58,494 nucleotides of DNA from a virus (taxonomy: Duplodnaviria; Caudoviricetes), in IMG/VR virus record IMGVR_UViG_3300032163_000016, positions 1 through 58,494 of that record. One strand, given 5' to 3'. This document shows, one piece after another, positions 9,101 through 34,921 of this stretch. The notes under the pieces are model-generated. The model was not told where the DNA came from and did not search any database. It saw only the letters and a program-made list of their open reading frames with translations. The first letter of the stretch is position 1; each line of letters begins with the position of its first letter. The translations under genes and the position numbers were made by a program.

Positions 9101-12100
9101 AGGCCAGATTGACGAGCGACGGCGTGAAATGACGCAAAACCCAACACCGAAGCGGATGAAGGAATATCGTAGTCGAGTGATTGAGGGTGACGATCTTGAA
9201 CGCGCGCAGCAGGCACTCCGAACTTTGGCGGATGCTCACGAACGCGGAACGGTTCCCCCGATATTGAGAGAGCTCAAGAGCAAGTCAGAAGTTCTGCCGT
9301 TAGTCAGAAAGGGCACAACAGGCGGGGGTGGGTACTACGATGTGATCGCCTCAATGGAGTACAAGGACACGAGTCCACAAGGAAAAGCACTTCAAGATTT
9401 GATGGAGGCCAAGCCGGAGTTAAGAGTTGCGGATGTTGAGAAGCAGAAGGCTCAGAAACTCGCGCAGATGGAGGCCGAGGTTCAGTTCCGACCACTGCCA
9501 GGATTTTTTCCAACGCCGAAGCCGCTTGTGCGCAAGATGATCGAGGCCGCCGACATTGAGGAAGGTCAAAAGATTCTCGAACCATCCGCAGGGAAGGGCG
9601 ATATTCTTGATGTTCTCAAGGAGGAAAAGCCCGAAGCCACAGATGTAAAAGCGGTAGAGCTGATGAGTCCCTTGGTGAACATCCTTGAAGCCAAGGGATA
9701 CGATGTCACCAGCAAGGACTTCCTAGAGTACAAGGAACCCGCCGATAAAATCTTGATGAACCCGCCATTCGAGAAAGGTCAAGACATAGACCACGTTCGA
9801 CACGCGTACGACCTGCTGAATCCCGGTGGCCGCGTAGTCGCAATTGTGTCGGAGGGGTCATTCTCTCGCTCAGACAAAAAAGCAACTGGATTCCGCGAGT
9901 GGTTGGATGAAGTTGATGGGAGGTCTGAAAAGATAGAACGTGGGGCATTTACTGGCAAAGAGGCATTCCGACAAACGGGTGTGGCCTCAAGGATGGTTGT
10001 GATTGACAAGCCCGCCGAGGCGAAGCCAGAAATCGCGCCGATCCGCGAAGAGGCAGTTGCAGGGTTGCCGCAGTTGAAAACCGCAGAAGAAATTCCTACC
10101 TTAGAACCAATGAAACCCCCAAGGGGGCCGGGCAAGCAACCTACCGAGATCAAAACCCCACAGCCCGAAGGTAGGAAGTTCAAAAACTGGTTTGCCGATT
10201 CAAAGATTGTGGATAAATCTGGCAACCCCTTAGTAGTATATCATGGGACAGGAGCAGATGTTAAGTCGTTCGACCCGCGTTTTCAGGGACTTGGAACCCA
10301 GTCCGAACTTGCGCAAAAGGGTATTTTTTTTACAAACTCAAAAGCGGCAGCGCAAACGTATGCCGACCGAGCACCAAGTAGAGAATTTTTAGAGTCACTT
10401 CCGGGAAGCAAGAAAGTGTCGGAAGTCCAATACGCGCTGCAAGATCAAATGAGTAAGGAACTTTCCGATTATCATGATTCATTTTTGAAAACCCATAAGA
10501 TCACTGAACATCAGTTAAGCGAGAACGAAGTTCTCTACAAGAAGTACAGTGAGGCTTATGATAAGATCGGCCAAAAGTACGAAACTCAAATTCACGCCTT
10601 ACAAGATGATTTCTTTAAGGTACATCCAAAACGTGAAGCGGTAGCGGTACCACGAATCGTTTCTGCCCATCTAAGAATTAGACAACCAGAAATCATAGAT
10701 GCGCGTGGAGCGGTGATTACAGACATCGAGATAGAATCAATAGTTGACAAAGCATTACGTGATAAACGAGATGGTGTTGTGATTCGTAACGTGATTGATG
10801 TCTTTGGGGAAGAATCTTTGGTTTCGGATGTTTACATCGCCTTTTCGCCAGAGCAAGTAAGAATTATTTCCCCTAACCTCTCCCGCGCCCCTGAAGGTGG
10901 GGCGCAAGTTGTACCCGCGTTAAAACCCACCGAAGTTCCCTCCGAAAAGCCACTCCGCCCCACCGGAACCGAGGGCAAGAAACTCGCGATGGAGTTGCTG
11001 CCGACCGCCGCCTATTTATCCGTTGATGCCCTGCCAGTAGATGATGACACAAAGGAAAAGCTCAAGATTGCTTTTGGTGCGCTCGCGATTGCGGGGTTAG
11101 GACTCGCCGCCAGTAAACGCGTAAAGGACTTGAGTAAAGAATTCCGCAATGCGGCATTTAGCAGAGCGATGCGTGGTGAGATCAAACCGACCGAACTTGA
11201 GGCCGACGTGCGAAAACGCGTGACGGATTTCTTCAAATCTGAAGAGTCAAAAAGTCTCAGCATTGAAGAAAAGAAGGAACTCATCCGCGCACACGGGATG
11301 GAGCCGTTCAGAGCAGAAGCGAAGAGAGCGGCTACCGAGATCAACAAAGCACTAAGCGAGGAAGTCCCAGTTCCAGAGCACCAGAAGGGAAGTCTATCCA
11401 GCCAGATTGCGGCAAAGAACGAAAAAACGGAAAGAAAAAAGCCACTAGCATCTCGGATCAATCAAAAGATCGCCGAGTATAGGCTGGATGCGCAACGAGA
11501 CGGACTGCGAGGAATTGAGTTGGTAGACTATGTTCGTGGTCGAGTAAACGAGTATGTGAAGACCGAGAAGCCGACAGGATTCACCGAAAAGCAACGAGAA
11601 ATGATTGGTCGGAAGACGGGCACGCTAGAACTGAAAAACGCGATTAAAAGACTTCAAGAGACAGAACAAAGAACGCAGAGAATTGCCCAAGCACGGGATC
11701 GCGCTGCGGATATAGCGATAGAGACACAGAGGCGGCTAATCAATAACTACGCAAAACCAGAGGAAGCGAAGAAGATCATCACCAGGGTTGATGAACTCGC
11801 AGATCACTTCCGTGACATACTGCCAGAGTCAAACTACAAAACTTTGAAGGGTGGCCTTATGAGTCGCAACGCAGTTTTCACACGCGACTTCGGACCCGCC
11901 GGTGCGGAACTGCAACTTCTCTTCCTTGACGGAAACATCAAAGAACGAACGCTAAGGGATGTCTTCATCGATCAGGTTTCGCAGCACAGGGAAATCTTTG
12001 AGGAGATCAATAGAAACAAATCTTCCCTAGCGAAAAAGGTTGAAATCGGTAGAGAGGTCAAAGATGCGTTAAACGACCGAGAACATGCACAGACCTATCT

Positions 12101-13934: not shown

Positions 13935-14276
13935 ATGAACATACCATTTTTGAAGCGCAGGGCGAAACTGATTGACGCGGATGGAAACTGCATTGCCGTG
14001 GTTGAGGTTCCGAAGAAGAACAACCACGGATGGCTGAAGGCGCTTATACCTATCGCTATTATGATTGCGGGTGGCCTAATTGGATATGGTCAACTCAAAG
14101 AAAGGGTGGATACTCTCAAAGTCGAAACGAACGACATGAAGAAGGAACTCGCCGACACGAGCAAGCGTCAGGCCGCAATGGAAGAAATGTTCAAGTACAT
14201 CGCAAAATCGCTTGACGAAATCAAGGCCAACCAAGAGAAGTTGCGAGACAAGATCGAAAAAAAGAAGGACAAATAA
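13935..14276 (+). CDS. Membrane-anchored coiled-coil protein (holin-like/lysis block)
   Basis: One TM segment followed by a coiled coil. Confidence 0.5.
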   Translation: MNIPFLKRRAKLIDADGNCIAVVEVPKKNNHGWLKALIPIAIMIAGGLIGYGQLKERVDTLKVETNDMKKELADTSKRQAAMEEMFKYIAKSLDEIKANQEKLRDKIEKKKDK

Positions 14277-14525: not shown

Positions 14526-14988
14526 TTACTGCATCATTGATTTCGTTTTCGCCCTATGGATTCTCTTGGATTCCTGGGCGGTGAAGTGGCAGGAAGCCTT
14601 TTGGGAATTCGGCGGGTACAAGCCCAAACTGAGTCAGGAGTATGTGAAGTGCCTTCTGACTGTATTTTCGCTCCTGATGGTGTTTCTAGTCGTTCTAACG
14701 GGTCGGTGGTGGCTTATCGTGCCTTTTGTGTTCCGCCAGCAGTGCGGGTTTGAAGATTTGGGGTACTGGCTGGTCGGGACGGGCATATTCGGCAAGGACT
14801 GGTCCTTCACTGAGACGGGGAAATTCTTAGGAATGCCCTATCCGCGTTGGTGGCCGTGGTTGAACACTATGCCAGTATTGAGATTCATTTCGGGCGGGAC
14901 GGTTTCCTTTGGTGGTTTGCTGCGGGCAGTCATAATCTGTGAAGTGCTCGTATTTGTGTGGTTAGTGTGGATCAACCATATCATTTAA
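14494..14988 (+). CDS. Membrane protein
   Basis: Several hydrophobic, Trp-rich segments. Confidence 0.6.
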   Translation: MDSNLQFLVLDYCIIDFVFALWILLDSWAVKWQEAFWEFGGYKPKLSQEYVKCLLTVFSLLMVFLVVLTGRWWLIVPFVFRQQCGFEDLGYWLVGTGIFGKDWSFTETGKFLGMPYPRWWPWLNTMPVLRFISGGTVSFGGLLRAVIICEVLVFVWLVWINHII

Positions 14989-14991
14989 TCT

Positions 14992-15282
14992 ATGAAAAAA
15001 CCCAAGATCAAACTTGTGGACAGGTTTCACATGGTAGATGAGGTCTCTGGTCCCCGAGGCCCACGTCGAGTCAAAGAATTCCTAGATAGCAAGGAAAACC
15101 GTTGCCGAGTTTTCGCGACGCGGGATTTACGGGACGCACTTGGTTATAGTGAGTCGCATTTCAAAACGGCAATTGGAGCGCATCCCGATGTCCAATGTTA
15201 CAGGCTACAGATCGCCTATCATCGCTATGTTTGGGGCAACTCCAAAGTCCTCAAACAATTCAAGGAGGAACGGGGATGGTGA
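14992..15282 (+). CDS. Hypothetical (possible HTH) protein
   Basis: 96 aa, basic; ATRDLRDALGYSES resembles an HTH. Confidence 0.5.
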   Translation: MKKPKIKLVDRFHMVDEVSGPRGPRRVKEFLDSKENRCRVFATRDLRDALGYSESHFKTAIGAHPDVQCYRLQIAYHRYVWGNSKVLKQFKEERGW

Positions 15283-16325
15283 AAACGACAAAGGCAGTTG
15301 AAGAGGACTTGAAGGGGCGGGAAATAAAGCAATACAAGAAAGAGAAGGAACTGAAATCAAGACTCGCGAAACTCCTTATTGGAAGCAACAATCCCTGGAC
15401 AGTTGCAACACTCTCTGACAGGTTTGAATGTTCCGAGGGCGATGTGACAAATTGCTTGAGGAAACTTGCGAAAGAAGGTCGGCGGGTCATCTTTCTCAAC
15501 GAGGGAGTTCAGATTTCAACAGAGATGCCGCCGAGTTCCGAGACGATTCCGATCAGTAATGCTAAGGCAAGGTGGATAAGATTTGGGGCGACAGCAGACA
15601 ATCATCTTTGTAGCAAATACTCTCGCCTTCAGGTTCTTAACGCACTCTTTGACCGATGGCAAGAGCAGGGAATTAAAACCGTTTATCAGATGGGCAACAT
15701 CATTGATGGCGAATGCAATTACAACAAATATGATCTCTATGTGCGGGGTGTTGATGCCCAGACGGACTACCTGATTGAGAACTGGCCCCATCGGAAGGGC
15801 ATCACCACGCGCTTCATAACGGGTGACGATCATGAGGGTTGGTACATTCAGCGAGAAGGTATCAACATCGGTGAATACATCGAGCAGCGGGCAAAGAAGG
15901 CGGGCCGGAACGACCTGATTTATCTTGGTCACATGGAGCATAATATCACGTTCACGAGCAAGGAAGGTGCATCGCAACTGAGGCTCATTCACACTGGCGG
16001 CGGCACAGCATACGCGATAAGTTACAATGTTCAAAAGCTTGCCGAGTCGCTGCAGGGAGGGGAAAAGCCGACAATGCTACTTTTGGGCCACAGTCACAAA
16101 TATGATTACAGTTACCCGCGAGAAATCCATGCAATCCAGGTTGGATGCACCATCGATCAAACCCCCTATATGCGGAAGAAGCGACTGCAGGCAATGGTGG
16201 GTGGTTGCACGGTGGAGATACTTCAGGATGAGCACGGGATTGTGCGAGAGGTCAAAGCAACCTGGATGCCATTCTACGACCGGAAATTCTACACAGACAA
16301 ACTCTGGAAGTACCATTGGAAATGA
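15276..16325 (+). CDS. Calcineurin-like metallophosphoesterase with N-terminal HTH
   Basis: Motifs ADNHL, GNIIDG, GDDHE, HTGG and GHSH; GGAGG SD before ATG 15276. Confidence 0.85.
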   Translation: MVKTTKAVEEDLKGREIKQYKKEKELKSRLAKLLIGSNNPWTVATLSDRFECSEGDVTNCLRKLAKEGRRVIFLNEGVQISTEMPPSSETIPISNAKARWIRFGATADNHLCSKYSRLQVLNALFDRWQEQGIKTVYQMGNIIDGECNYNKYDLYVRGVDAQTDYLIENWPHRKGITTRFITGDDHEGWYIQREGINIGEYIEQRAKKAGRNDLIYLGHMEHNITFTSKEGASQLRLIHTGGGTAYAISYNVQKLAESLQGGEKPTMLLLGHSHKYDYSYPREIHAIQVGCTIDQTPYMRKKRLQAMVGGCTVEILQDEHGIVREVKATWMPFYDRKFYTDKLWKYHWK

Positions 16326-23331: not shown

Positions 23332-23640
23332 ATGCCGTTAAATTCCATGAAAATCGCACCACGATTGTCGCTACGGAGAGATGTAACGGCTGTTCGAGCA
23401 ATCTATCAAAGAAGGATAATTCGTCTCAGGAAACGATTTGAGCGGGGTAAGTCGGCGACGGCCATTGCTGGAGATTTGAAACTATCCCCGCCGACGGTAT
23501 TGATGATTTTGAAGTATCCAGATCGGTCCGTTTCACTAAGGACGATGTTGAAAGTAATAAGGGGGACAGAGCGGAAAAATCGTCGCTGCCCAAAGATAGC
23601 ATCATTCCGAGGCGGTATCTGGTGTCAGGATTCGATTTGA
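23332..23640 (+). CDS. HTH DNA-binding protein
   Basis: GKSATAIAGDLKLSPPTVLMIL. Confidence 0.55.
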   Translation: MPLNSMKIAPRLSLRRDVTAVRAIYQRRIIRLRKRFERGKSATAIAGDLKLSPPTVLMILKYPDRSVSLRTMLKVIRGTERKNRRCPKIASFRGGIWCQDSI

Positions 23641-24105
23641 TTGTTCTTTGAGGCAAGCACACAGTTGCTGCTAAGGAACGGGGAACGATTTGTAGAATCG
23701 ATGGTCATAGTTTGACAACCGTTCCAGCGATTGTCGTGCTTGCCATTGTTCTTTGAATGTTGCAGTTGTTTCTGACCAGCAGCAGCCTTTGGATAGCGTA
23801 ACCTATGCCAAGGGTGCACCTAGGCGAAAGCCGATGGTTCAAATACGAGCTAACTGGCGACCAGACAAGCAAAGTGCTTGCTGACAACTGCAACTTAATT
23901 CTTGGATGGCCGTGGTGTGGGAACCTAATCTTGGAGACGGGCATTGGTTGTGACTGAGGATATTCAAGGAACCCAGCAACGAGATTGCAGACCAACTGCC
24001 AGCCACCCATTGATTGTATTCCGGTTTAGCCTTTCGCCGGAGTAAAAGCAAAGGCATTAATCCTCCCTCTGGGCCGCCGTGTACGGTGCGCGGCGGCTCG
24101 GTTTA
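23640..24105 (+). ncRNA. Candidate structured non-coding RNA region
   Basis: No credible ORF; several nested inverted repeats, a GGC-GAAA-GCC tetraloop and a terminal GC-rich hairpin. Confidence 0.45.
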
Positions 24106-24793: not shown

Positions 24794-25056
24794 ACCGCAC
24801 CCTGAAATTTTTTGCGCGCCCGAATCCGGTCTGGGGATTCATCTTACTGATGCTGATTGTTCTGGCGGCGTGGCTGATAGCGGGACTAATCATAGAGAAT
24901 CCCATAGTTGCCCGGGTCGCCGTTGCCGCGTTCTTGATTTTCCCAGTGGCATTTGTGGTGAGGGGTCTCGCCCTAACGTGGTACGAAGTCGAAGAGAAGG
25001 TGCGCGGATTTTTTGAAGCCATCAATGCAGAATCAACGAAGAGGGACTGCGACTAA
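24790..25056 (+). CDS. Two-TM membrane protein
   Basis: Two hydrophobic helices; ATGA overlap with the upstream gene. Confidence 0.65.
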   Translation: MNRTLKFFARPNPVWGFILLMLIVLAAWLIAGLIIENPIVARVAVAAFLIFPVAFVVRGLALTWYEVEEKVRGFFEAINAESTKRDCD

Positions 25057-26969
25057 TGAAGTTTCTGGACTGGAAATCTTGCTATAAAGAATCTGGCAAA
25101 AATCTCTGGGTCCCGTTAGCGTACACCCACCCAGCGAAGATGTCTGTCGGATTATGCCGCAAAATCTTCGCGTTTATGGAAGAGAAGGGGATGCTGAAGA
25201 AGGGGAATGTGGTCTGCGATCCCTTTGCGGGAATCTTCACGACGGGACTAATCGGAGCAATGAAGGGGTATCGGGTTGTGGGAGTTGAACTCGAAGAGAA
25301 GTTCTGCAAGTTGTCCAAGCAGAACATCGAGAAGAACCATAAGATTCTTGAGAGGCTTGGTGTGCCCATTCCTGAAATTTATCAAGCAGATAGTAGAAAA
25401 CTTTCAGAGGTGATCGCATTTCGCCAAGCCGTTGATCTCTTCGGCCTTCTGCTACATCCGCTCGGCGATGTCGTAGTCCAGTTTCGCCCAGACGAATTTC
25501 ATCCGACGCGCCAACTTGTTCTTGAAGATCATCAGACCCAGTTCCTTGCCCGATGCGTACAAAAAGTGGAAGGAATTGTGACAAGTCCACCATTTTCAAT
25601 GGCGAATTGCCAACCGGTTAGTTCGACGGTATTAGGATCGGGACAAGGAGTGCGGAGTAAATATAAGGAAATTGGTAAACGACCCGATGATAATTTGGGT
25701 GGAACCAAAGGACAGATTGCAATTTTGAAGGAAGGGTCCATCTCCGCCGTTCTGACAAGCCCGCCGTACGCAGATACTCCGACAAGCGCACAAAATGTTG
25801 GGAACACAATCAAGAAGAATTGGGGCAAGGGCAGAAGGCTTGTTGATGACAAAGAACCAAACTATGGAATGGAAGTTGGTCAAATCGGTTCTCTCAAAGA
25901 CAAAGGCATCGACGCCGTTATCACCTCGCCGCCCTATGCTGAGATACGACAGGATGGAGGTTCTACGAGACCCGGGTACACCGGCATGACGCCTTACAGC
26001 GGTGAACCCCGAAATGCTTGGCGAACGACTCGCAATCAAGAGAACATTGGCAATGTGCCCGAGGGCGATGTTGATAGTGTGATAGGAGGAACAACATGCG
26101 ATACTGTGAAGATTGTGGGAAATCAGTTGGTCCCCAAAGTAGATGGTGCAAGAAATGTTATCGATACCACATCGGGAGGCCGGGAGTCCCCAAGACAGAA
26201 GAACATAAGCGGAAGATCGGACTTGGACATCTCAACATCGCAGATCCGTTGCACTACGCCGACAAAAACAAGAATTGGAAAGGTGGAGATGAGAGGTGGA
26301 GGGGATTCGCGTGGAGAATCCAAAGACGTAAAGCACTCGCCCACGACAACTATCAATGCCGAAAATGTGGAGCACGAGAGTATCTCGTTGTCCATCACAA
26401 GAAAGACAAAACCCAAACAGGAGGGGAGTGGGACAACTCGATTGAAAACCTTGAAACACTCTGTCGAACCTGTCACAACCAGCATCACAGCAAGGACGAA
26501 AGAATCTACAGAATTAAATGCAAAGTTTGTGGCAACTATTACACTAGTAGAAGCGCGGTTCCAGGAGCCTGCTCCCGTAAGTGCAGGACAAAACTCAACA
26601 CAGCCAAGCACAGAAAATGGGTTCAAAAGAAACGAGCCGCCGACATATTGGTCGGAGATGGCCAAAATATATCTTGAATGCTGGAAGATTTTGAAACCTA
26701 ACGGGTATATGGCAATCACAGTTAAGGACTTTGTACGCGCAAAAAAGCGCGTACCCCTATGCGACAATACCGTGAAGTTGCTTGAGCATCTTGGATTCAA
26801 AGTCGAATACCGTGCCCGTGCTTGGTTGACTGAGGATTTAGGAACCCCCGATGCCTTCACGGGAAGGACCAAGAGCAAACAAAGGAAGTCATTTTTCAGA
26901 AGGCTGGCAGAAAGTAAAGGCAGTCCGAGGATAGATTGGGAGGAGGTTCTGATATGCCAGAAGATTTAA
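25056..26969 (+). CDS. Amino (N4C/N6A) DNA methyltransferase with triplicated SPP(Y/F) modules and two in-frame insertions
   Basis: HPAKM, DPFAGIFTTG and GVELE; TSPPF/TSPPY/TSPPY; C-terminal YWSEMAKIYLECWKILKPNG. Confidence 0.8.
   Translation: MKFLDWKSCYKESGKNLWVPLAYTHPAKMSVGLCRKIFAFMEEKGMLKKGNVVCDPFAGIFTTGLIGAMKGYRVVGVELEEKFCKLSKQNIEKNHKILERLGVPIPEIYQADSRKLSEVIAFRQAVDLFGLLLHPLGDVVVQFRPDEFHPTRQLVLEDHQTQFLARCVQKVEGIVTSPPFSMANCQPVSSTVLGSGQGVRSKYKEIGKRPDDNLGGTKGQIAILKEGSISAVLTSPPYADTPTSAQNVGNTIKKNWGKGRRLVDDKEPNYGMEVGQIGSLKDKGIDAVITSPPYAEIRQDGGSTRPGYTGMTPYSGEPRNAWRTTRNQENIGNVPEGDVDSVIGGTTCDTVKIVGNQLVPKVDGARNVIDTTSGGRESPRQKNISGRSDLDISTSQIRCTTPTKTRIGKVEMRGGGDSRGESKDVKHSPTTTINAENVEHESISLSITRKTKPKQEGSGTTRLKTLKHSVEPVTTSITARTKESTELNAKFVATITLVEARFQEPAPVSAGQNSTQPSTENGFKRNEPPTYWSEMAKIYLECWKILKPNGYMAITVKDFVRAKKRVPLCDNTVKLLEHLGFKVEYRARAWLTEDLGTPDAFTGRTKSKQRKSFFRRLAESKGSPRIDWEEVLICQKI
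25431..25562 (-). repeat. 132-bp inverted repeat, copy 2 (antisense exonuclease fragment inside the MTase gene)
   Basis: 129/132 identical to the reverse complement of 22406-22537. Confidence 0.95.
26096..26677 (+). CDS. HNH homing endonuclease nested in an alternative frame of the MTase
   Basis: AGGAGG SD at 26084-26089; Zn fingers; NUMOD3-like KTEEHKRKI; NWKGG; CRKC...VHH...NSIENLETLCRTCH. Confidence 0.85.
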   Translation: MRYCEDCGKSVGPQSRWCKKCYRYHIGRPGVPKTEEHKRKIGLGHLNIADPLHYADKNKNWKGGDERWRGFAWRIQRRKALAHDNYQCRKCGAREYLVVHHKKDKTQTGGEWDNSIENLETLCRTCHNQHHSKDERIYRIKCKVCGNYYTSRSAVPGACSRKCRTKLNTAKHRKWVQKKRAADILVGDGQNIS

Positions 26970-27308
26970 TTTCGCTCTACGAATCAGGGAAAAGTGTGCG
27001 AAACATCTCAGAACTCAAATGAGTACGGGTACAAGTCACCTATTGGCAAAGGCAACCGTCGTGACCAATACTGGTGGAATGTTTCACCAGAAGGATTACG
27101 GTGGTTGTTGCCGCAGGTTCTTCCGTACCTGCTAGTAAAGAAAAAACACGCGGAGATTGTTCTCGAACTTCTGAGCAAAAACAGCAGAAGCAAGAGACTT
27201 CCGAATGAAAGAAAGATGGAGCTGCGAGATGAAATCCGACGACTTAATATCAAAGGACGTAAACAATCTGAGGAAGAAGTGATCTTCGTACAGAAGGCAA
27301 CAGATTAG
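26954..27308 (+). pseudogene. Degenerate LAGLIDADG-type homing endonuclease remnant
   Basis: A short ORF MPEDLISLYESGKSVRNISELK* (HTH-like, GGAGG SD) is followed in another frame by YWWNVS...LLPQVLPYLLVKKKHAEIVLE, like a LAGLIDADG C-terminal half. Confidence 0.55.
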
Positions 27309-27491
27309 ATGTCCCTCGCTCAGATCATATTACTGGGTCTCAATTCGCGCAAGACTCCGCCAGTCAGGATAAAACAATGCGACGGCTGCGGCAGATGGCG
27401 ACCAATAAGTTGGTTCTATGACCGCGACAAGAAGAAGGCGAAGGTTCGGTGCAAGAAATGCTTATCGGGAATCCAAAAGAAGAAGAACTGA
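27309..27491 (+). CDS. Small Zn-finger protein
   Basis: CDGC...CKKC. Confidence 0.55.
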   Translation: MSLAQIILLGLNSRKTPPVRIKQCDGCGRWRPISWFYDRDKKKAKVRCKKCLSGIQKKKN

Positions 27492-27847
27492 TGACCGAAA
27501 CCACGATAAAGGTATTTGAGTATCTCATCGACAGGGAAGGGTTTGTGCCAGCGATTGACTTGGCGAAAGCACTTGGGTACAAGAACGAGCGCCCATTGCG
27601 CGCCATAGGAACGACCATAGGTGTATTAGACAGGGCGAGCCGTGAGATATTTGAAGACAGGGGTTGGGTACTCATCACAAGGATGCGTGAGCCCTCGGGC
27701 GTGAAACTTAGTAAAGACCCCGAAGAAATCGCTGCCGCAAAGGAACAGTGGGTAAAATGGTTCTGGCCGATAAAGAAGAACAAGATTGATTTCTACGAAA
27801 GATGCGAACGCACGTTAAGAAGCAAGCAGATGGAGTTGGCCGTATGA
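27491..27847 (+). CDS. Winged-HTH-like protein
   Basis: VFEYLIDREGFVPAIDLAKALG; TGATG coupling with the upstream gene. Confidence 0.55.
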   Translation: MTETTIKVFEYLIDREGFVPAIDLAKALGYKNERPLRAIGTTIGVLDRASREIFEDRGWVLITRMREPSGVKLSKDPEEIAAAKEQWVKWFWPIKKNKIDFYERCERTLRSKQMELAV

Positions 27848-27949
27848 GCGTCATTTTGCCGATTGTTAGGCGTTCGATGCTCTATTGATTTCGCGGCAAC
27901 GGCCAAAGTGTCGGGTAGTAGACTCCTATACATTAGGAGGGCACAAATT

Positions 27950-28201
27950 ATGGCATACAAAGGAAGTTCGCTCGGTCGACGTTCGCAAGGACGGACACAT
28001 AATCCAACCTCGATAGAAAAACAAGGTGCACCGTTGCGTAGGATTGTTGAGGTGATGGAATCATCTAAGAATATCTTCCAACCCTCATACGTCAGATTGG
28101 ATTGCGGACATACAGCATATACTTACTCACGGTTCAACGTGAGGGCGCGGTGCGCCGAATGCAAAGTGGCCGTTGCCGCTACAAAAAGCACTGACGCCTA
28201 A
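27950..28201 (+). CDS. Cassette gene, small Zn-binding hypothetical protein
   Basis: AGGAGG SD; LDCGH...CAEC; the stop codon lies within the CCTAAC box. Confidence 0.7.
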   Translation: MAYKGSSLGRRSQGRTHNPTSIEKQGAPLRRIVEVMESSKNIFQPSYVRLDCGHTAYTYSRFNVRARCAECKVAVAATKSTDA

Positions 28202-28337
28202 CGTTCGCGGCAAAACGCAGCGAGCGAACCAACTGACAGAAAGCTAAAAACAATGAGCGAGTTGAGCGACAAAACCGAATTAAACCAGTGGAGCGGAGTT
28301 TTGCCGATTGTTATGTGCCGTGCCCGCAGAAGGATTT

Positions 28338-28973
28338 ATGATTGAACCATATTACTCTGAGGATGGGATCACGTTGTATTGTGCAAGAGCGGAGGATGTT
28401 TTGCCGCAACTATCTGAGAAAAGCGTGGACTTTGGATTTGCAGACCCACCCTATGGAATTGAGAAAGCAGAGTGGGATTGTCGGTATCCGGAATGGTGGT
28501 TTGAGCGGGAGCTATTGCGCGTATGTACGCGGGGTGTGGCGGTGACTCCGGGGCAGGATAACATTGCGACTTGCATTATGAGAATGGGGAATGATTACAG
28601 AGGAATTCATTTTGCGAGGAATTTGAACGGAATGACGTTTGGCGGGATAGGTTTCGAGAACTTTATTGCTGCGGTAATAGGAGGAGAAGCACGGCGCGGG
28701 ATGAGTTACTTTGATTTTGTGGTGCGGGGAGAGAAGCCCAAACATCCTTCGCCAAAACCGACCGAGTATATGGCGAAATTGCTTGAGAGATTCACGGAAG
28801 AGAAAGAAATTGTGATAGATTGCTTTGTGGGCAGCGGTACTACTCTTGTTGCGGCAAAACGTCTTGGGCGTAAGGCGGTTGGGATTGAGATGAGCGAGGC
28901 ATACTGCAAAATAGCAGTACAAAGGTTGAGTCAAAAAGAACTCTTCGGAATTGAGAACGGGCATGGCATATAA
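28338..28973 (+). CDS. Cassette gene, beta-class N6A/N4C DNA methyltransferase
   Basis: ADPPY, HPSPKP, DCFVGSGTT and GIE; the stop codon lies within the ATAAC box. Confidence 0.9.
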   Translation: MIEPYYSEDGITLYCARAEDVLPQLSEKSVDFGFADPPYGIEKAEWDCRYPEWWFERELLRVCTRGVAVTPGQDNIATCIMRMGNDYRGIHFARNLNGMTFGGIGFENFIAAVIGGEARRGMSYFDFVVRGEKPKHPSPKPTEYMAKLLERFTEEKEIVIDCFVGSGTTLVAAKRLGRKAVGIEMSEAYCKIAVQRLSQKELFGIENGHGI

Positions 28974-29025
28974 CTACGGTAACTACGCACTTTTTGTTCG
29001 TAGTACTGTCCTATGGACGAAATGA
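28970..29025 (+). repeat. 56-bp array-end element, copy 1
   Basis: 55/56 identical to 30844-30899; contains two small hairpins. Confidence 0.9.
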
Positions 29026-29046
29026 GACAAAAAAAGGAGTAACAGG

Positions 29047-29457
29047 ATGACCGCCGAAGAAGAAAAACCTGACGGACAAATCATGGAAGATGTAACCGGT
29101 GCGTTTGCTTCTCACCGCAAGGTAGCAGGCACTCAAGAATTCAAAATGCAACTTGACCAGATCGGTATTGAGTCGGGTTTATATCCAGATCAAGCGATGA
29201 AACAAACCTCGGCAATACTGGAACTTCTTCAACGAGGCAATGTAGGGAGCCAATCCGCTAAAGATGCGGCGAGCGAAGAACTCAAGAACGCGAAAACCGA
29301 ACTTGCCAAGTGGCAAACAATGTGCGAAGGATTTGTCGGGGTATCGGTAGTGGCAGACATTTTTGTGAACGAGCCACATACACCGCATGTTTTTGGACTC
29401 TACGTGAAGAATCTCATTGAGCAAATTCGCGAACTTAAGCGAGCCACCAAGAAATAA
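29047..29457 (+). CDS. Hypothetical protein
   Basis: AAGGAG SD; 136 aa. Confidence 0.65.
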   Translation: MTAEEEKPDGQIMEDVTGAFASHRKVAGTQEFKMQLDQIGIESGLYPDQAMKQTSAILELLQRGNVGSQSAKDAASEELKNAKTELAKWQTMCEGFVGVSVVADIFVNEPHTPHVFGLYVKNLIEQIRELKRATKK

Positions 29458-29635
29458 AGCATTGTGGCTAATATATCGGGCAAGCACGCAGTAACCGTTG
29501 AATTGTGGAAGTCGCTGCTATAAACCACACCGTTGAAGGCAGCAACCAACGGTCTTAGGATTCACGTTATTAGCGTGCTTGCCATTGTTATCTGTTCGGC
29601 ACTCAATAATGACGCGGTTGCGCCGAAAGGAATTT

Positions 29636-29941
29636 ATGGGACTCAACATCGTTGTCACAATACCGAAGGAGCGGGTGAAGCAAGTTGAAGCAGAGGAAAC
29701 TGAAGTAGCGAAACGGATCAAGACGGGAGAGAAGGACATCGTCTATTGGTGGAGTATTCCGAGTGAGCCAGTCAAAAGAGTCGAGCGAATCTACTTCGTC
29801 TGGAATGGGGCGATCCGAGCCTGGCATGAAATTATAGAAATCATTCACGAGACCAGTGTACGGGTCTATATGAAGCCAGAGATACACATGCTCAAAGAAC
29901 CAATACCGATGAAAGGATTTCGGGGTTGGCAATACTTCTGA
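29636..29941 (+). CDS. Cassette gene, PUA/ASCH-like protein
   Basis: RIYFVWNGAIRAW and a C-terminal PIPMKGFRGWQY, resembling ASCH-family ends. Confidence 0.5.
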   Translation: MGLNIVVTIPKERVKQVEAEETEVAKRIKTGEKDIVYWWSIPSEPVKRVERIYFVWNGAIRAWHEIIEIIHETSVRVYMKPEIHMLKEPIPMKGFRGWQYF

Positions 29942-30078
29942 TTCACAACGCGGCGCAACCGCTAAAGAGAAGTGCTGACAGATAACGTTCAAGTAAGTCC
30001 GACGTTTGGGCGTACCAATATCTAAGACTGAATCGACCAAATGTGCAACATCACACCAAAAAGAATGGAGCGAACTCT

Positions 30079-30393
30079 ATGGAAAATCAAAATAACCTGA
30101 GCGACGTAAACATTGTTAGGTGTTCGTTGCGGCTACAGACGGAATACCAGTACATAAAGTTTGAAGAGCTACCCAATCTTGCAACTCCTAAAACGAAACA
30201 TTGGTGCTGCATAAACAAACGAGTCGACTCGGTAGTTGGTTGGGTTTGTTGGGACAATGGTTGGCGGCAATATGTATTCACCCCAAAATTTAAATGTATC
30301 TTCAGCACGGGATGTCTCAAAGATGTCATACACTTTATCGAACAGGTGATGAGCGAACATCGGCAGAAAGCAATGAGCCGCAATGACACCTAA
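30079..30393 (+). CDS. Cassette gene, hypothetical; starts in the linker and reads through GTT
   Basis: GGAG SD and ATG 30079 lie in the linker; the stop codon lies within the CCTAAC box. Confidence 0.65.
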   Translation: MENQNNLSDVNIVRCSLRLQTEYQYIKFEELPNLATPKTKHWCCINKRVDSVVGWVCWDNGWRQYVFTPKFKCIFSTGCLKDVIHFIEQVMSEHRQKAMSRNDT

Positions 30394-30625
30394 CGTCTGG
30401 CAAAACACCGACGTTGCTAAAAAAAGTAGCGGGGCTGAATGAACCATACACAACATGAACTTGCGACACAATTTTGGATGCGATATTTTTGGAATTCTAC
30501 CGATAGTCCAGAGAAAAGCGATTTCTTCAACCTTTGTGAGTCACTGTGCGAGGCAACCAATCGCAATGTAGGGAGCGAAGCGACCGACGGTGTTTTGCCT
30601 GTTATGTGCAGTTTTTTGAAACAGC

Positions 30626-30847
30626 ATGAAGACAAAATTAACTCAAAAACAGAAAGATGACTTTGCTGACATTATTGCCAGCTATTCGATAATCAGTGTA
30701 AAAATGAACGGCAAGGAGATTTGGGACTGTACTGGGAAAGAAACTAAAGATTCCATCAAGTTAGGGATTACTGCCGAACACAAAAGAATATATGTGAGGG
30801 GAATCGTTAGCGAGATACTGGACTATGTTTCAAAAAATTGCACATAA
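30626..30847 (+). CDS. Cassette gene, hypothetical
   Basis: 73 aa; the stop codon lies within the CATAAC box. Confidence 0.6.
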   Translation: MKTKLTQKQKDDFADIIASYSIISVKMNGKEIWDCTGKETKDSIKLGITAEHKRIYVRGIVSEILDYVSKNCT

Positions 30848-30899
30848 CTACGGTAACTACGCACTTTTTGTTTGTAGTACTGTCCTATGGACGAAATGA
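30844..30899 (+). repeat. 56-bp array-end element, copy 2
   Basis: Matches 28970-29025 with one mismatch. Confidence 0.9.
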
Positions 30900-30924
30900 A
30901 TCAAAAGTGAAAGGAGCCTGAGAA

Positions 30925-31545
30925 TTGGCAGAATCTTTTCGGGAAATGCCAAAAGCCCAAGCAGTTCGGTCCTGGACTCCGAGTGTCCGCAAAGAAGCCT
31001 TTGAGTGGTGTGTGAAGGCAAACGGGAAGGCTTGCGTCTCGGTGAAGCACGACGAAGGCCGTGCATTCCGTCAATGGGACATTCACCACAAGGATGGGGA
31101 CAGGACTCACAACCCGCCCGACGGGTCAAATTGGGCACTGATGTGTCACCCCTGCAATGTGAGAGAGTCGCCGCACGGCCCGCCCATGCACGATAGATTC
31201 AGCACTCACCTGCACTTCAAGGAGTCACGTACATACCAACGCACACGCGAGCGGCTAGCAGTGAAAACTCTTGCAATGCAGAGGAATGTGACTGCTGAGC
31301 CGATCGTACGCGAATTCGCCAGAGAGAAGATCAAAGAGAAGGGCGAGGTCGGGCTGGAGGATCTGATTGACGCGGCGGCGGAAGAGGTTTTAAGGCGGAC
31401 CAAAAGTAGGTGCAGTATAACGCAAGAACGCGTCCGGTTGTATTTGGACAAGATGTTGAATCCTTTGACGGGAGAGTATGAGATTTTTGAGGATGAGGAT
31501 GGAGTGGAATGGATAAGGAGACGGCAAGATGATTCGACGCATTGA
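30925..31545 (+). CDS. HNH-domain protein
   Basis: IHHKDGDRTHN...NWALMCHPCN; AAGGAG SD. Confidence 0.75.
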   Translation: MAESFREMPKAQAVRSWTPSVRKEAFEWCVKANGKACVSVKHDEGRAFRQWDIHHKDGDRTHNPPDGSNWALMCHPCNVRESPHGPPMHDRFSTHLHFKESRTYQRTRERLAVKTLAMQRNVTAEPIVREFAREKIKEKGEVGLEDLIDAAAEEVLRRTKSRCSITQERVRLYLDKMLNPLTGEYEIFEDEDGVEWIRRRQDDSTH

Positions 31546-31816
31546 CAATAGTCAGAGAGAAAAGAAAAGAGTGAAGAAAGGCGAACTGAACGGAGAAATC
31601 GAACGATTGAAAACCACCATCAGCCAGTTGCAGAAAGGAATAATCGACGATCCGGCAGAATCCGAGCGCCGCAAGCATTGCGTGGACTGCGGGCACAAGA
31701 AAAACGACAAGCGAAGCGCGCAGGTCGCGGAAGAAAAAGCAAAACCAAGGCGGGAATCCGAGATGAGCCAAACCAGGCGCAGCTACGAGAAGATGATGGT
31801 TGGATACAACAGGTAG
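31529..31816 (+). CDS. Hypothetical protein
   Basis: AGGAG SD; coiled coil plus CxxC. Confidence 0.45.
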   Translation: MIRRIDNSQREKKRVKKGELNGEIERLKTTISQLQKGIIDDPAESERRKHCVDCGHKKNDKRSAQVAEEKAKPRRESEMSQTRRSYEKMMVGYNR

Positions 31817-31826
31817 GGGGGACACA

Positions 31827-32129
31827 ATGAAATTCAGAATGAGTCTTGGTCAGATCAAGTTCTACATTGAGCGCTTGCAGAATTACGGCACGAAGTTTCA
31901 TTTCCTAGTGACCATTCTCATCGCAATCAATGTTGGGGTGGCAGCATGGTATTGGTGGTTACTTCTCATCCCAATCGGAATCGTAACGGTGATCCTAGAC
32001 CGCAAGTATGTGGCCGCCGACGATCTGAGGGAGTACATGAGGATCAACCCCGCCTGGATAGAGATGACGGAACGGTTAGAGCGCATTGAGAAGGTGTTGA
32101 AGGAAAAGAATGAACAGAGCAAACGATAA
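31827..32129 (+). CDS. Two-TM membrane protein
   Basis: Hydrophobic helices and a C-terminal coiled coil. Confidence 0.6.
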   Translation: MKFRMSLGQIKFYIERLQNYGTKFHFLVTILIAINVGVAAWYWWLLLIPIGIVTVILDRKYVAADDLREYMRINPAWIEMTERLERIEKVLKEKNEQSKR

Positions 32130-32493
32130 TTGGGTCGCATCCATAGTTATTGCCGGAGTGTGTGTCTTAGCCGTTTTCCTGAGCGGTCTGGTTTTTAATG
32201 GACACCCAAGAAATGCTTGGGAGGATCTCTTAACACTTGCGGCACTGGGAATTTTGTTACTCGGCATCAACGTGTTATTGCTGCTTGCGGTTACGGGATT
32301 CTGGCAGTTTGGACTCTTTGTTGTAGAGAAATTGGCAATGCGCGGAAAAAAGACCCGCCACCTACCCCATACGTGCCTATGCTGGTTCTGGAACTGGCGA
32401 AGGGGATGGGAAGAGGTAGACAATCCTGATGGATTGTATCCGCTCGAAAGATGTCGCCGCTGCGGGATTCACAGAGAGAGGAAAAGGTACTAA
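32110..32493 (+). CDS. Membrane protein
   Basis: Two TM segments and a C-terminal CRRC. Confidence 0.55.
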   Translation: MNRANDNWVASIVIAGVCVLAVFLSGLVFNGHPRNAWEDLLTLAALGILLLGINVLLLLAVTGFWQFGLFVVEKLAMRGKKTRHLPHTCLCWFWNWRRGWEEVDNPDGLYPLERCRRCGIHRERKRY

Positions 32494-32711
32494 AAGCTTG
32501 GATCGCATCTGCATTGACTGCGCGTGTGGGTACTCATTCTGTTTGAGTCGCGCGGTATTGGAACATAGCACAGGTGGATTTTTCGAGTGCCCTGGAAAGG
32601 AGATAAAGCATTGTACGCGGCGATTTCGCCCCGCTGATATGCTGGCCCTAATGAACCGAGGCGAAAGAGAGTATAAGGTGGAAGAGAAACAAGAAAATCT
32701 AGAGTTGAACA

Positions 32712-34091
32712 GTGGATCACCTTGATTTGTTCTCAGGAATCGGTGGTTTCGCTCTCGCGGCGAAATGGGTTTGGAAGGATGAATACGTAAATGTCGGACA
32801 CTCGGAAATTGACAAATACTGCTGCCAAGTCTATCACAAGCGATTCCCCGAAAGCAAATGCTTCGGAGACATCACGAAGGTTGACTGGTCGAAAGTCAAA
32901 GCGAAACTCGTTACAGGGGGATTTCCTTGCCAGCCATTCAGTGTTGCCGGGAAGCGAAGAGGCAAGGCGGATGACCGCTACCTCTGGCCGCCAATGTTTG
33001 ATGCGATACGAGCAATTCATCCGAGGTTCGTGGTCGTTGAGAATGTGCCGGGTCTTGATGACAAAACCTATCTGGCACTCGATGGCTGTATCTCTGATTT
33101 GGAAAGCGCGGGCTACGAAGTCGCGCCGCCGTTTTGGATTCCAGCTTGTGCCATTGGTGCGCCGCATAAAAGGGAGAGAATTTGGATTCTTGCTCACCAC
33201 GCCAACATCAATGGATGGTATGCAAAGCAAGAAAAAACGAGATCGGCTTTTCATAACAAAAAACCAAACGGTGAGATACCGGGGCAAGGGCGGCAAAACA
33301 AGCAATGCGGGATTACGCAGTCAACTGGAACATTATCTTGCATTATTGCCAACACCAGAATCACGGGACTATCGGAGTCCAGACTGCAATCCAAAAACGA
33401 GAAGGCAACGTGTAAAGTCAGAACTCAACACGACCATAGGGTTAATTCCCACGCCGCGCCTAAAAATGGTGAACGGGCCAAGTCAATCAGAGATAGACGC
33501 AGGGGACCCGAAGCGGAGAATCGAGGTCACAATTGGAATGAACCCTGGCTTGAAGTTGCAACCCGCCTTTGTGGAACACCTAATGGGCTATCCGCTTGGC
33601 TGGACCGAAATAACGGAGGATTGAATGGGTCAACCGCAAAAAAGGTTACCCGACAAAATCTGCCCTATTTGTGGCACTATATTCAACAGGAAGCGATTCG
33701 GCAAGACCCTGGAGGATGCGAATCGATACCAGACACGCAAAACCTGTTCGCAGTCTTGTGGCAACACTTTACTCGAACCACTGGACAGAAGCACCTATTA
33801 CTTGAGAGCGCGGAAGCATCTGAAGCCCGCCTGCGAAACGTGTGGATCGAAAATCAAGTTGGACGTTCACCACAAAGACGGGAATATCAAGAACGAGCAA
33901 CCGGAGAATTTGCAGACGCTTTGCCACTGCTGTCACATGAAGTTGCATTGGCGACAGAGAAAATGGTGAAGCGGTATTCTGCCCATCGGGTGGACAGACT
34001 TAGAGCATTAGGCAACGCAATTATGTGGCAACTGGCCGCCGCGATGATGCAGGCCATGAAGGAAGTTGACGATAAGGAGATAGGAACATGA
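32712..34091 (+). CDS. C5-cytosine DNA methyltransferase, large (alpha) polypeptide lacking motif IX
   Basis: DLFSGIGG, GDI, GGFPCQPFS, ENV, HKRERIW and motif X RLRALGNAI. Confidence 0.9.
   Translation: MDHLDLFSGIGGFALAAKWVWKDEYVNVGHSEIDKYCCQVYHKRFPESKCFGDITKVDWSKVKAKLVTGGFPCQPFSVAGKRRGKADDRYLWPPMFDAIRAIHPRFVVVENVPGLDDKTYLALDGCISDLESAGYEVAPPFWIPACAIGAPHKRERIWILAHHANINGWYAKQEKTRSAFHNKKPNGEIPGQGRQNKQCGITQSTGTLSCIIANTRITGLSESRLQSKNEKATCKVRTQHDHRVNSHAAPKNGERAKSIRDRRRGPEAENRGHNWNEPWLEVATRLCGTPNGLSAWLDRNNGGLNGSTAKKVTRQNLPYLWHYIQQEAIRQDPGGCESIPDTQNLFAVLWQHFTRTTGQKHLLLESAEASEARLRNVWIENQVGRSPQRREYQERATGEFADALPLLSHEVALATEKMVKRYSAHRVDRLRALGNAIMWQLAAAMMQAMKEVDDKEIGT
32791..33624 (+). CDS. Overlapping beta polypeptide of the C5 MTase (TRD repeats plus motif IX); true start uncertain (e.g. 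32971)
   Basis: LLTTPT/LLPTP/LIPTP repeats and LQPAFVEHLMGYPLGWT in the +1 frame, as in the M.EcoHK31I alpha/beta arrangement. Confidence 0.75.
   Translation: MSDTRKLTNTAAKSITSDSPKANASETSRRLTGRKSKRNSLQGDFLASHSVLPGSEEARRMTATSGRQCLMRYEQFIRGSWSLRMCRVLMTKPIWHSMAVSLIWKARATKSRRRFGFQLVPLVRRIKGREFGFLLTTPTSMDGMQSKKKRDRLFITKNQTVRYRGKGGKTSNAGLRSQLEHYLALLPTPESRDYRSPDCNPKTRRQRVKSELNTTIGLIPTPRLKMVNGPSQSEIDAGDPKRRIEVTIGMNPGLKLQPAFVEHLMGYPLGWTEITED
33625..33969 (+). CDS. HNH endonuclease nested in the C5 MTase gene
   Basis: GGAGG SD; CPIC...TCSQSC; CETC...VHHKDGNIKNEQPENLQTLCHCCH. Confidence 0.85.
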   Translation: MGQPQKRLPDKICPICGTIFNRKRFGKTLEDANRYQTRKTCSQSCGNTLLEPLDRSTYYLRARKHLKPACETCGSKIKLDVHHKDGNIKNEQPENLQTLCHCCHMKLHWRQRKW

Positions 34092-34228
34092 AACTCCGAT
34101 GGTTTTTGATTTTGGGTGGAGTTGTGCTGGCAGTTGCGATTGTACGGTATTTGCATCCCAGAAGGCGCCGCCCCGATGTGACAAAGATATTTGACGGCAT
34201 AATGGATTTCGTCGATGAGAGGGAGTGA
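34088..34228 (+). CDS. Small membrane peptide (46 aa, not in the ORF track)
   Basis: AGGAG SD; MKLRWFLILGGVVLAVAIVRYL...; fills the gap exactly. Confidence 0.55.
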   Translation: MKLRWFLILGGVVLAVAIVRYLHPRRRRPDVTKIFDGIMDFVDERE

Positions 34229-34921
34229 ATGCTGAAGAAGTCACAAGGGAACATGTATCCTTGGACAAGCCACACGCACAGTCATCTTGGTGGTGAATGT
34301 CCACACAAATGCGTCTACTGTTACATGAACCATCCTCGCTTCGGCAGGGCAGCGCGATACACAGGCAGGGTGCGGCTAATAGAGTCGGAATTGAGCGTAA
34401 ACTATGGTACGGGCAAAGTAATCTTCATCGAACACACCGGCGACATAATGGCGCGAGATGTGCCAAGCGAATTCGTGGACAAGATACTCACGCATTGTAG
34501 AGCGTATCCCGAAAATGAATACGTATTCCAGTCGAAAAATCCAAGAAGATTCCTTGAGTTTCGCGGTAAATTCCCGCCGAAGATCATGCTTGGCACAACG
34601 ATTGAGACAAACCGCACCATCGAGGGTATCTCGGAGGCCCCTACACCAGAGCAAAGATACTGGGGCATGCTTTCTTTGAGAATACTTGCCGCAAATTGTC
34701 CAACATTTCTTACGATTGAACCAGTCCTTGACTTTGATGTTCGGATACTCGGTGCTTGGATTATCAACTTAGATCCGCACTTTGTAAATATCGGTGCAGA
34801 CTCAAAGAACCACAAACTCGTCGAGCCGAGAAGAGAAAAGGTTGTGGCCCTAATGGACTATCTCAAGAAGAGCGGGATTGAACTTCGAGAGAAACACAAC
34901 TTGAATCGGTTGATCAAATGA
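34229..34921 (+). CDS. Radical-SAM protein (gp37/gp68/DUF5131-like)
   Basis: CPHKCVYCY, FQSKNP, GTTIETNR, TIEP and VNIGADS. Confidence 0.85.
   Translation: MLKKSQGNMYPWTSHTHSHLGGECPHKCVYCYMNHPRFGRAARYTGRVRLIESELSVNYGTGKVIFIEHTGDIMARDVPSEFVDKILTHCRAYPENEYVFQSKNPRRFLEFRGKFPPKIMLGTTIETNRTIEGISEAPTPEQRYWGMLSLRILAANCPTFLTIEPVLDFDVRILGAWIINLDPHFVNIGADSKNHKLVEPRREKVVALMDYLKKSGIELREKHNLNRLIK

Follow-up and report, generated by a model that had tools for sequence, protein, structure and literature searches.

Canonical attC sites of integrons measure about 57-141 nt, are bounded by the outer boxes R'' (RYYYAAC) and R' (GTTRRRY), and show, in the L stem, extrahelical (bulged) bases that identify the recombining strand; where at least two attC sites occur without a nearby integrase, they form a cluster of attC sites lacking integron-integrases (CALIN). 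Sedentary chromosomal integrons have long arrays of highly similar sites (~120-150 nt) with the recombinase at one end, and in the inverted-integrase group (Treponema denticola type) this recombinase is oriented like the cassette genes. In CTX phage, the folded single-strand attP shows that an Xer enzyme is able to use a folded phage hairpin. Here we describe region 27845-30906 of IMG/VR virus record IMGVR_UViG_3300032163_000016, a stretch of 58,494 bases analysed as a whole and called the window below. This region probably comprises two short cassette arrays of integron type that lack a recombinase and would be served in trans by the array enzyme of the host, an arrangement that is called CALIN for classical integrons.

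Such clusters have a precedent in phages. The accessible text of Qi et al. 2023 (PMC9892861) reports integrase-less attC clusters (CALIN) in virulent phages, proposes that a bacterial integrase acts in trans and shows IntI1 to be active on five of six sites. As far as that text goes, the phages described there resemble the one studied here in their same-direction single-gene cassettes, hairpin sites, lytic genomes, lack of an integrase and N6_N4_Mtase cargo. They differ in that their sites were called canonical attC by IntegronFinder/HattCI, whereas here a minority of sites match the R boxes and the arms span 9-23 bp, and in that the bacterial counterpart of the present sites adjoins a recombinase without the IntI insert. 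Integrase-less attC clusters with methyltransferase cargo are already published for phages, and the sites reported here answer only in part to what defines attC. Word searches of the open-access literature returned no account of cassette arrays with an insert-less recombinase in Bacteroidota or of this site family, which is not proof of absence.

Analysis of the window revealed five units that start with GTTA, finish with TAAC and have ends of their own that pair over 9 to 23 bp (Table 1), and all the repeats listed in the original prediction, which had been made from the letters alone, were found. A sixth unit with a decayed end box, the gene at 29047-29457, had been overlooked, so that the predicted count of five held for the units named and fell one short. 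Each cassette carries one small gene, and in four of the five units the TAA stop lies within the TAAC box, as had been noted. The flanks of the units are conserved, with ATT ahead of GTTA and GT behind TAAC. The longest arms combine 15 Watson-Crick pairs with 2 G:T in 17 (u2) and 22 with 1 G:T in 23 (u5), in keeping with the claim of outer stems far beyond a 7-bp R box. The two reported inner stems are fully paired, 27893-27905/28167-28179 in u1 at 13/13 positions and 29614-29625/29951-29962 in u3 at 12/12. The start codon of the u4 open reading frame (ORF) must precede the GTT box of its cassette, as ATG 30079 follows GGAG and no in-frame ATG lies just past the box.

Between the cassettes lie structured repeats of 85-220 nt, the sites, which are laid out as TAAC, a 5-nt spacer, an inner box L'', a loop, an inner box L', a spacer of 3-4 nt and GTTA. 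The inverted repeats that had been noticed in the linkers pair at 12/14 positions in site 1 (28208-28221/28293-28306), 11/11 in site 2 (29479-29489/29573-29583) and 14/15 in site 4 (30399-30413/30585-30599), and site 3, rightly called degenerate, has lost its L boxes and kept a central block. An attC-type inner L''/L' pair with an unpaired spacer is thus present in three of the four internal sites of the window. Each of the two arrays is closed by the same ~58-nt element E, and GTTA/TAAC array motifs are confined to this one region of the 58-kb genome, the exception being a solo element at 23640-23756.

A lone 9-bp GTTA.../...TAAC bracket is not above chance: brackets with at least 8 matches number 11 in the whole window, against a mean of 17.75 in 20 shuffles. 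Because short brackets alone are not rare, the significance of the pattern rests on the tiling of the units, their conserved flanks, the three long arms and pairing with the own partner. The own-partner arm count was highest or tied highest in its matrix row for every phage unit except u4, whose ungapped count (5+1) ties that of the 3' arm of u2, falls below those of u1 and Ac2 (5+2) and leads only when a bulged T is allowed. The claim that ends pair solely within their own unit therefore stands as a best or tied-best partnership and fails for the ungapped count of u4.

A search for the linker pattern placed the sites in a bacterial family. Among 185,579 species genomes scanned, the 23-nt pattern GAGCGNNNTTTTGCCGATTGTTA gave 7 matches in 4 stretches, all in one metagenome-assembled genome (MAG) labelled "uncultured Bacteroidetes bacterium" (CAVUAC01; G001). 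Contig C60 of this MAG carries 19 paired sites on one strand between 52.0 and 73.4 kb, each of 149-189 nt, with cassettes of 0.2-3.2 kb between them. A profile built from the 19 MAG sites alone matched site 1 of the phage (28195-28317) over its full length (positions 2-159; E = 2.8e-6), the opening half-site of array 1 (27842-27872) at profile positions 129-159 (E = 2.3e-4) and sites of a related phage, relative A, with E = 5.7e-5 and 2.4e-3; the profile matches in the phages were all on the + strand. The opening half-site is 89-94% identical to five MAG sites over 31-35 nt. A weak match covers the degenerate site 3 (29980-30080; E = 0.096), whose central AATGGAGCGAACTCT is similar to the AATGGAGCGAGCTCTTTA of the MAG sites. 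When 20 kb of phage DNA were compared with the MAG, every one of the 7 matches was a site module and nothing else was common to the two. In the order to which the MAG belongs, 89 of 277 genomes contain the L'-R' module (at most 2 mismatches), with 57 copies in G001 and 22 in G141, compared to about 17 hits in total for a reversed-pattern control.

The pairing rules of the phage units recur in these bacterial arrays. L'' and L' agree at a variable tetramer in 18 of the 19 MAG sites, including three compensated variants, and over positions 5-16 the arms of one cassette match at a mean of 7.72 of 12 positions, compared to 5.21 within a site and 5.17 in all-against-all comparison. Half of the cassettes (9/18) pair at 10 or more of the 12 positions past the core, and MAG arms share the same G:T (position 11) or the same bulged T (position 10). 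Since the arms and inner boxes of the MAG behave as in the phage, long self-complementary ends are a trait of the site family and not a peculiarity of the phage. In both phage and MAG the R'' side thus pairs better with its own cassette than within its site, as in attC and far beyond 7 bp. Across phage and MAG together, 25 of 26 R'' boxes contain the TAAC core and all 26 R' boxes the GTTA core. Of the phage sites (85-220 nt) 5/7, and of the MAG sites (149-189 nt) 0/19, fall inside the canonical attC length range.

A 388-aa tyrosine recombinase is encoded ~0.8 kb past the last C60 site (G001:C60:74161-75327), in the orientation of the MAG cassette genes. Its best solved relative is Vibrio IntI4 (2a3v; 144.5 bits), yet the alignment omits chain residues 176-252 of IntI4, where the MAG enzyme has 35 residues as opposed to 77; archaeal XerA aligns to it without a gap. 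The enzyme passes the cut-off of NF040815 (XerA/integron integrase; 224.3 versus 220) and lies under the integron-integrase threshold of TIGR02249 (218.2 versus 265). Orthologs of 53-63% identity were found in four of five other array-rich genomes tested, and in each of the three genomes with both on one contig (G001, G146:C19 and G130:C5) the recombinase adjoins the array, with the same relative orientation throughout. Another contig of this MAG bears a second mini-array (G001:C41, L115, 12500-15520), in which a pair of sites near 12519 and 13356 precedes a - strand gene for a 305-aa tyrosine recombinase (14600-15517); the relative arrangement is as on C60.

The MAG arrays resemble inverted-integrase chromosomal integrons in their length, in the similarity of their sites, in the recombinase at the end and in outer boxes that match the own far end. 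They differ from chromosomal integrons in having 35 rather than 77 residues at the IntI4 insert, a recombinase score below the cut-off and outer stems of 15-20 bp, as well as a conserved L-stem mismatch in place of predicted bulged bases. According to its accessible text, IntegronFinder 2.0 (PMC9024848) reports one complete integron in Bacteroidetes, where integrons are held to be almost absent, and the accessible part of PMC4792948 holds that integrons need an IntI-specific domain for folded sites. Judged by the profile matches, the phage sites belong to a family that builds long arrays beside an IntI/Xer-like recombinase in one Bacteroidota order, and the host of the phage is probably a member of that order.

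Comparison of the window with its relatives revealed that cassette content changes while the site modules persist. The viral and metagenome collections yielded one close relative, relative A (four near-identical records, ~69% DNA identity in conserved genes), and a distant relative B, which has no sites; protein-guided scans found these two only, and a DNA search of the phage collection found no close relatives. Of the 94 stretches that a 15-mer scan returned from viral contigs, just two had module context, both from one phage lineage; viral contigs held no relatives of the upstream 132-aa protein or of the core of element E. Relative A has three sites of the same family, all three with an inner L''/L' pair and an unpaired spacer, and four cargo genes, none of them common with the window. 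The end modules are shared while the cargo differs; for example, the first 25 nt and the last 48 nt of u1 correspond to the ends of two different cassettes of relative A. Its array likewise ends after a cassette of the arm type that precedes element E in the window, and there element E is absent.

The methyltransferase genes offer a rare view of a gene becoming a cassette, because orthologs with arms in one phage lack them in a related one. The window carries the N6 methyltransferase as a cassette (u2) and relative A as a plain, armless gene (L095 12691-13395), with homology running from the ATG to about eight codons before the stop; since it ends there, the tail of the window protein is encoded by the arm. 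The C5 methyltransferase is the opposite case, a cassette in relative A and not in the window.

Variation was also seen in contigs of four sediment runs, compared with window 25000-34500; as these data are contigs and not reads, starts, ends and rare circles are invisible in them. In a 323-nt contig of run X3, position 27861 is joined to 30112 inside nine shared letters, ATTGTTAGG, with no letters between, which sets the opening half-site directly ahead of u4 and amounts to a cassette deletion inside the ATTGTTAGG box; the nine letters include G^TT. The units stand in a different order in X3 record 14, a contig of 2,315 nt, in which 29464 is joined straight to CGCCTAAC and a linker like that of site 1, so that gene 29047 has an intact TAAC box, CGCCTAAC, followed by a site resembling site 1. 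Runs X1 and X2 contain the half-site module 27845-27876 between foreign sequences, and its loose ends there lie at 27843/27845 and 27876. The homology to the MAG arrays, the adjacency of a recombinase there, the changed cargo in relative A and the X3 junction together support the predicted attC-like cassette system; the further expectation that variants would change at G^TT is in line with the X3 junction, and nearby gene gains and losses that involve no box speak against a picture of changes at boxes alone.

Part of the loop of site 4 (30438-30582 of 30414-30584) recurs in another context in X3 record 14, so that inner boxes may bracket cargo as well; the ORF that starts in this loop (30439-30660) encodes 73 aa.

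The most economical mechanism would have a host enzyme act on the phage DNA. A site on one DNA strand, here the + strand, would fold into a hairpin in which the outer arms make one stem and L''/L' a second, with the unpaired spacer between them, and this hairpin would be the substrate. The host recombinase would cut a phosphodiester at or beside the GTTA/TAAC core, and cassettes could then be excised, inserted or reordered. The long self-complementary ends of a cassette would represent the halves of one hairpin stem, parted by recombination, and the phage would probably swap its accessory genes with an enzyme lent by the host. As far as the accessible text of PMC7399989 goes, a comparable division of labour is found in the pdif modules of Acinetobacter plasmids, gene modules between inverted sites that are served in trans by a host Xer-type enzyme. 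Unlike dif and pdif sites of Xer systems, the present sites show, by eye, no evident dif-like core of 28 bp with a pair of similar arms, and their R and L boxes are unrelated in sequence.

Several observations weigh against this reading. Scored against the canonical attC consensus, R'' matches in 3/7, R' in 3/7 and both boxes in 1/7 of the phage sites, the figures for the MAG sites being 5/19, 7/19 and 2/19. The extrahelical bases that the original prediction had proposed to look for did not materialize: predicted folds show no bulges in the L stems, where instead one mismatch, 9 nt into the 12-nt stretch compared, is conserved in 19/19 MAG sites. The 388-aa recombinase lacks the additional domain of IntI and scores below the TIGR02249 cut-off. 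Only site 1 matches the MAG profile at full length; site 3 is without L boxes, the outer box of site 2 reads TAAT, and the spacer of site 4 is shorter. The phage genes are inverted with respect to site polarity relative to 14 of the 15 MAG cassettes with an ORF of at least 50 aa, and the folding strand of the phage is the coding strand. A tblastn search with the seven cargo proteins of the window gave no hit in the bacterial loci examined, and the covariation cannot separate a GTTA-side from a TAAC-side cut. No recombinase was found in relative A, which is 52% complete. In the phage itself, six frames of the complete genome gave 0 matches to PF00589, as predicted, and no tyrosine or serine recombinase, Y1 transposase or reverse transcriptase, so the intI beside the array that marks a complete integron is missing. 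The CALIN label, resting on four internal sites and one half-site without a recombinase, is valid only if the sites count as attC-like.

Also unfavourable are several features of the variants, some of which suit the alternative that holds up best, namely that general recombination of phage or host swaps genes at shared linkers with no site-specific enzyme. Whole genes nearby are gained and lost without any box (e.g. 32702 to 34064), indicating a region that is mosaic generally, and the X3 junction lies in nine shared letters, the site modules being the sole sequence common to unrelated cassettes. The downstream site of gene 29047 in X3 record 14 differs from that in the window, which agrees with general recombination and misfits a unit made of cargo plus downstream site. 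In the MAG, a duplicated cassette that is 92% identical to its copy, with 90% identity in the + strand downstream site and 73% in the upstream site, favours precisely that unit, with the one X3 contig against it. The variant contigs are of low depth (2.7 and 6.4), and no circle or excision junction was found among contigs, which cannot reveal rare circles. The lack of a recombinase in the phage would also be expected if general recombination were at work.

The published model for such swapping is the promoter-stem-loop (PeSL) cassettes of T4-type phages, described in the accessible texts of PMC2839356 and PMC4122927 as direct repeats of a promoter and a stem-loop that are shuffled by homologous recombination. 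To that extent the likeness includes small accessory genes, a variable phage region and a repeated flanking motif linked to modular shuffling; unlike PeSL, the ends here are cassette-specific inverted repeats with no enrichment of promoters or terminators. We counted 5 sigma-70 promoter-like sites versus 4.6 expected and 3 terminator-like sites versus 3.8, all outside the conserved modules save one weak hairpin at 30575-30598, so the defining make-up of PeSL is absent. General recombination also leaves unexplained the 9-23 bp complementarity of each cassette's ends and the presence of the site family beside a dedicated recombinase in 3/3 testable genomes, and we consider it unlikely as the main cause of the pattern.

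It is very unlikely that the arrays are fossils, once mobile or captured with flanking host DNA and now inert, decaying repeats. Decay would account for the degenerate site 3, the TAAT of site 2 and the partnerless opening half-site, and the cargo, a methyltransferase for instance, is typical of phages. The folding of the sites as single-stranded DNA can be read in the same way and is another point against an active array: site 1 alone folds no better than shuffles (z = +1.1), site 3 gives nothing significant, and z is below -2 on both strands in just two of the six sites folded, site 2 reaching -2.59 on the + strand and -3.15 on the - strand. However, the 17-bp and 23-bp arms, whose only mismatches are G:T, are not decayed, and cassette content varies among close variants in the same sediments.

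A role of the stems in RNA, in which the 5' and 3' ends of an mRNA would pair to form, for example, an RNase III processing or a stabilising stem, bears on the strand question. Minimum-energy folds close both ends in all five units, as RNA or as DNA, and in the RNA folds the nine outermost bases of both ends are paired in 5/5 units with z from -1.6 to -5.8 (u5, -5.84; 30 shuffles, dinucleotides not preserved). Four of the five units are among the top five of 75 phage genes in own-end duplex strength, all five mismatches in the long arms of the phage are G:T on the + strand and hence G:U in the mRNA sense, and the stem lengths of 17-30 bp suit RNase III. In the MAG, however, the longest ORF lies on the - strand in 14 of 18 cassettes (+ strand in 1, none in 3), and the arm mismatches of the nine well-paired cassettes on the + strand are 9 G:T, 1 A:C and 3 other. 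The strand that pairs better is the gene strand in the phage and the complement of the gene strand in the MAG. With the MAG genes on the opposite strand, it is the site and not the mRNA that the structure follows; as in integrons, the strand favoured in the MAG is complementary to the coding strand. This explanation is the least probable of all, since the G:T bias stays with the site strand where an mRNA would have A:C, arguing against mRNA structure as the primary cause, and since it leaves the invariant GTTA/TAAC core and the adjacent recombinase unexplained; in phage mRNA the stems are still expected to form, possibly with side effects.

Two readings based on other mobile elements were also rejected. 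That of a miniature inverted-repeat transposable element with a target duplication fits the solo element at 23640-23756 only, the flanks of the array sites not being direct repeats. Readings as an IS200/IS605-type element, a serine-recombinase element or a retroelement found no such enzyme in the six frames; DDE transposase families were not searched.

Table 1. Coordinates and make-up of cassettes, sites and related elements in the window
Feature	Coordinates	Strand	Description
Solo site-like element	23640-23756	+	GGCAAGCACAC ... TCGTGCTTGCC, flanked on each side by ATTGTTCTTTGA
Opening half-site, array 1	27845-27864	+	L' box TTTTGCCG and ATT spacer; no partner L'' upstream
Cassette u1	27865-28202	+	Arms GTTAGGCGT/ACGCCTAAC, 9/9 paired; ORF 27950-28201, 83 aa, no family
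Site 1	28203-28309	+	Spacer GTTCG, L'' CGGCAAAAC, loop, L' GTTTTGCCG, spacer ATT
Cassette u2	28310-28974	+	17-bp arms; ORF 28338-28973
Element E, copy 1	28975-29032	+	Conserved hairpin-bearing stretch closing array 1
Sixth unit	29047-29472	+	Gene 29047-29457, 136 aa, no family; degenerate R'' box GGCTAAT at 29466-29472
Site 2	29473-29586	+	L'' GGCAAGCACGC / L' GCGTGCTTGCC, then ATT
Cassette u3	29587-29986	+	Arms GTTATCTGT/ACAGATAAC, 9/9 paired; ORF 29636-29941, 101 aa
Site 3, degenerate	29987-30114	+	L boxes gone, family central block kept; carries start codon of u4 ORF (30079)
Cassette u4	30115-30394	+	Arms of 9 bp, one bulged T, 10 bp more; ORF 30079-30393, 104 aa
Site 4	30395-30600	+	L'' GGCAAAACACCGACG / L' CGACGGTGTTTTGCC; 171-nt loop contains start of ORF 30439-30660
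Cassette u5	30601-30848	+	23-bp arms; ORF 30626-30847, 73 aa, no family
Element E, copy 2	30849-30906	+	Closes array 2

The cargo of u2 is an N4/N6 DNA methyltransferase (PF01555, E = 4e-22), which confirms that one cassette carries a DNA methyltransferase, and the u3 ORF gave a weak match to DUF1489, under the cut-off. For gene 29047 a homolog search returned two proteins only; the 3' arm of this sixth unit pairs at 7/8 positions with the 5' arm of the first cassette of relative A. Element E lies in a 70-nt direct repeat (28963-29032 / 30837-30906, 93% identical), and its 25-nt core has exactly two copies in the window compared to 0 expected. Its structure comprises an 8-bp stem, capped by a T-rich loop of 11 nt, and another small hairpin, and no T run follows. 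The solo element, which the MAG-site profile did not recover, has inner boxes as in site 2 (GGCAAGCAC.../...GTGCTTGCC), and the 12-nt direct repeat ATTGTTCTTTGA around it resembles a target duplication or an empty site.

The window represents the complete genome of a sediment phage, with direct terminal repeats and all of its genes on the + strand, encoding a P22-like portal, an SU10-like capsid protein and a terminase. A search of the whole window against Rfam gave 0 matches at the gathering score and, at a relaxed threshold, one chance-level match (osmY, E = 0.9), and a tRNA search of the window found none. The arrays sit in a variable block with many DNA methyltransferases and HNH endonucleases. 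Within this part of the genome, contigs of runs X1 and X2 stop or branch precisely at 25431 and 25562, and a 3,031-nt X2 contig is without the entire C5 methyltransferase gene (32702-34064), with GGCTT in its place and no GTTA/TAAC box. Contigs of X2 and X3 omit 409-415 nt at 33572-33988, with 19-25 other letters substituted; the omitted part contains an HNH ORF (33625-33969) within the C5 methyltransferase gene and looks like a mobile HNH insert that is present here and absent in the variants. A non-coding stretch of ~350 nt (23760-24105) without an Rfam match lies upstream of HNH gene 24122, and a block in it, GCAGACCAACTGCCAGC..., recurs in relative A (L095, about 13960-14010). Farther upstream lies a gene (6120-13919) for a 2,599-aa protein that contains an ART-PolyVal ADP-ribosyltransferase domain, weakly matches methyltransferases and is probably a polyvalent virion protein that is ejected.

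In sum, one site family ties together a lytic phage that has no recombinase, long chromosomal arrays found in one third of the genomes of a single bacterial order, and an IntI-like enzyme without the insert, and for an uncultured phage it provides a host clue in the sequence itself. If the enzyme works on these sites, the finding bears on the origin of integron chemistry from Xer-type recombination and means that phages can join the cassette economy of their hosts without paying for the enzyme. A broader and more tentative proposal, which may well prove wrong, is that Bacteroidota harbour a second integron-like lineage, with an IntI-related recombinase lacking the insert, outer stems of 15-23 bp and a conserved mismatch replacing the bulges, and that lytic phages of these bacteria carry enzyme-less arrays of the same sites with reversed gene polarity and, in the course of infection, exchange accessory genes, anti-restriction genes among them, by means of the host enzyme. 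Were this so, the array would be a gene market shared by host and virus.

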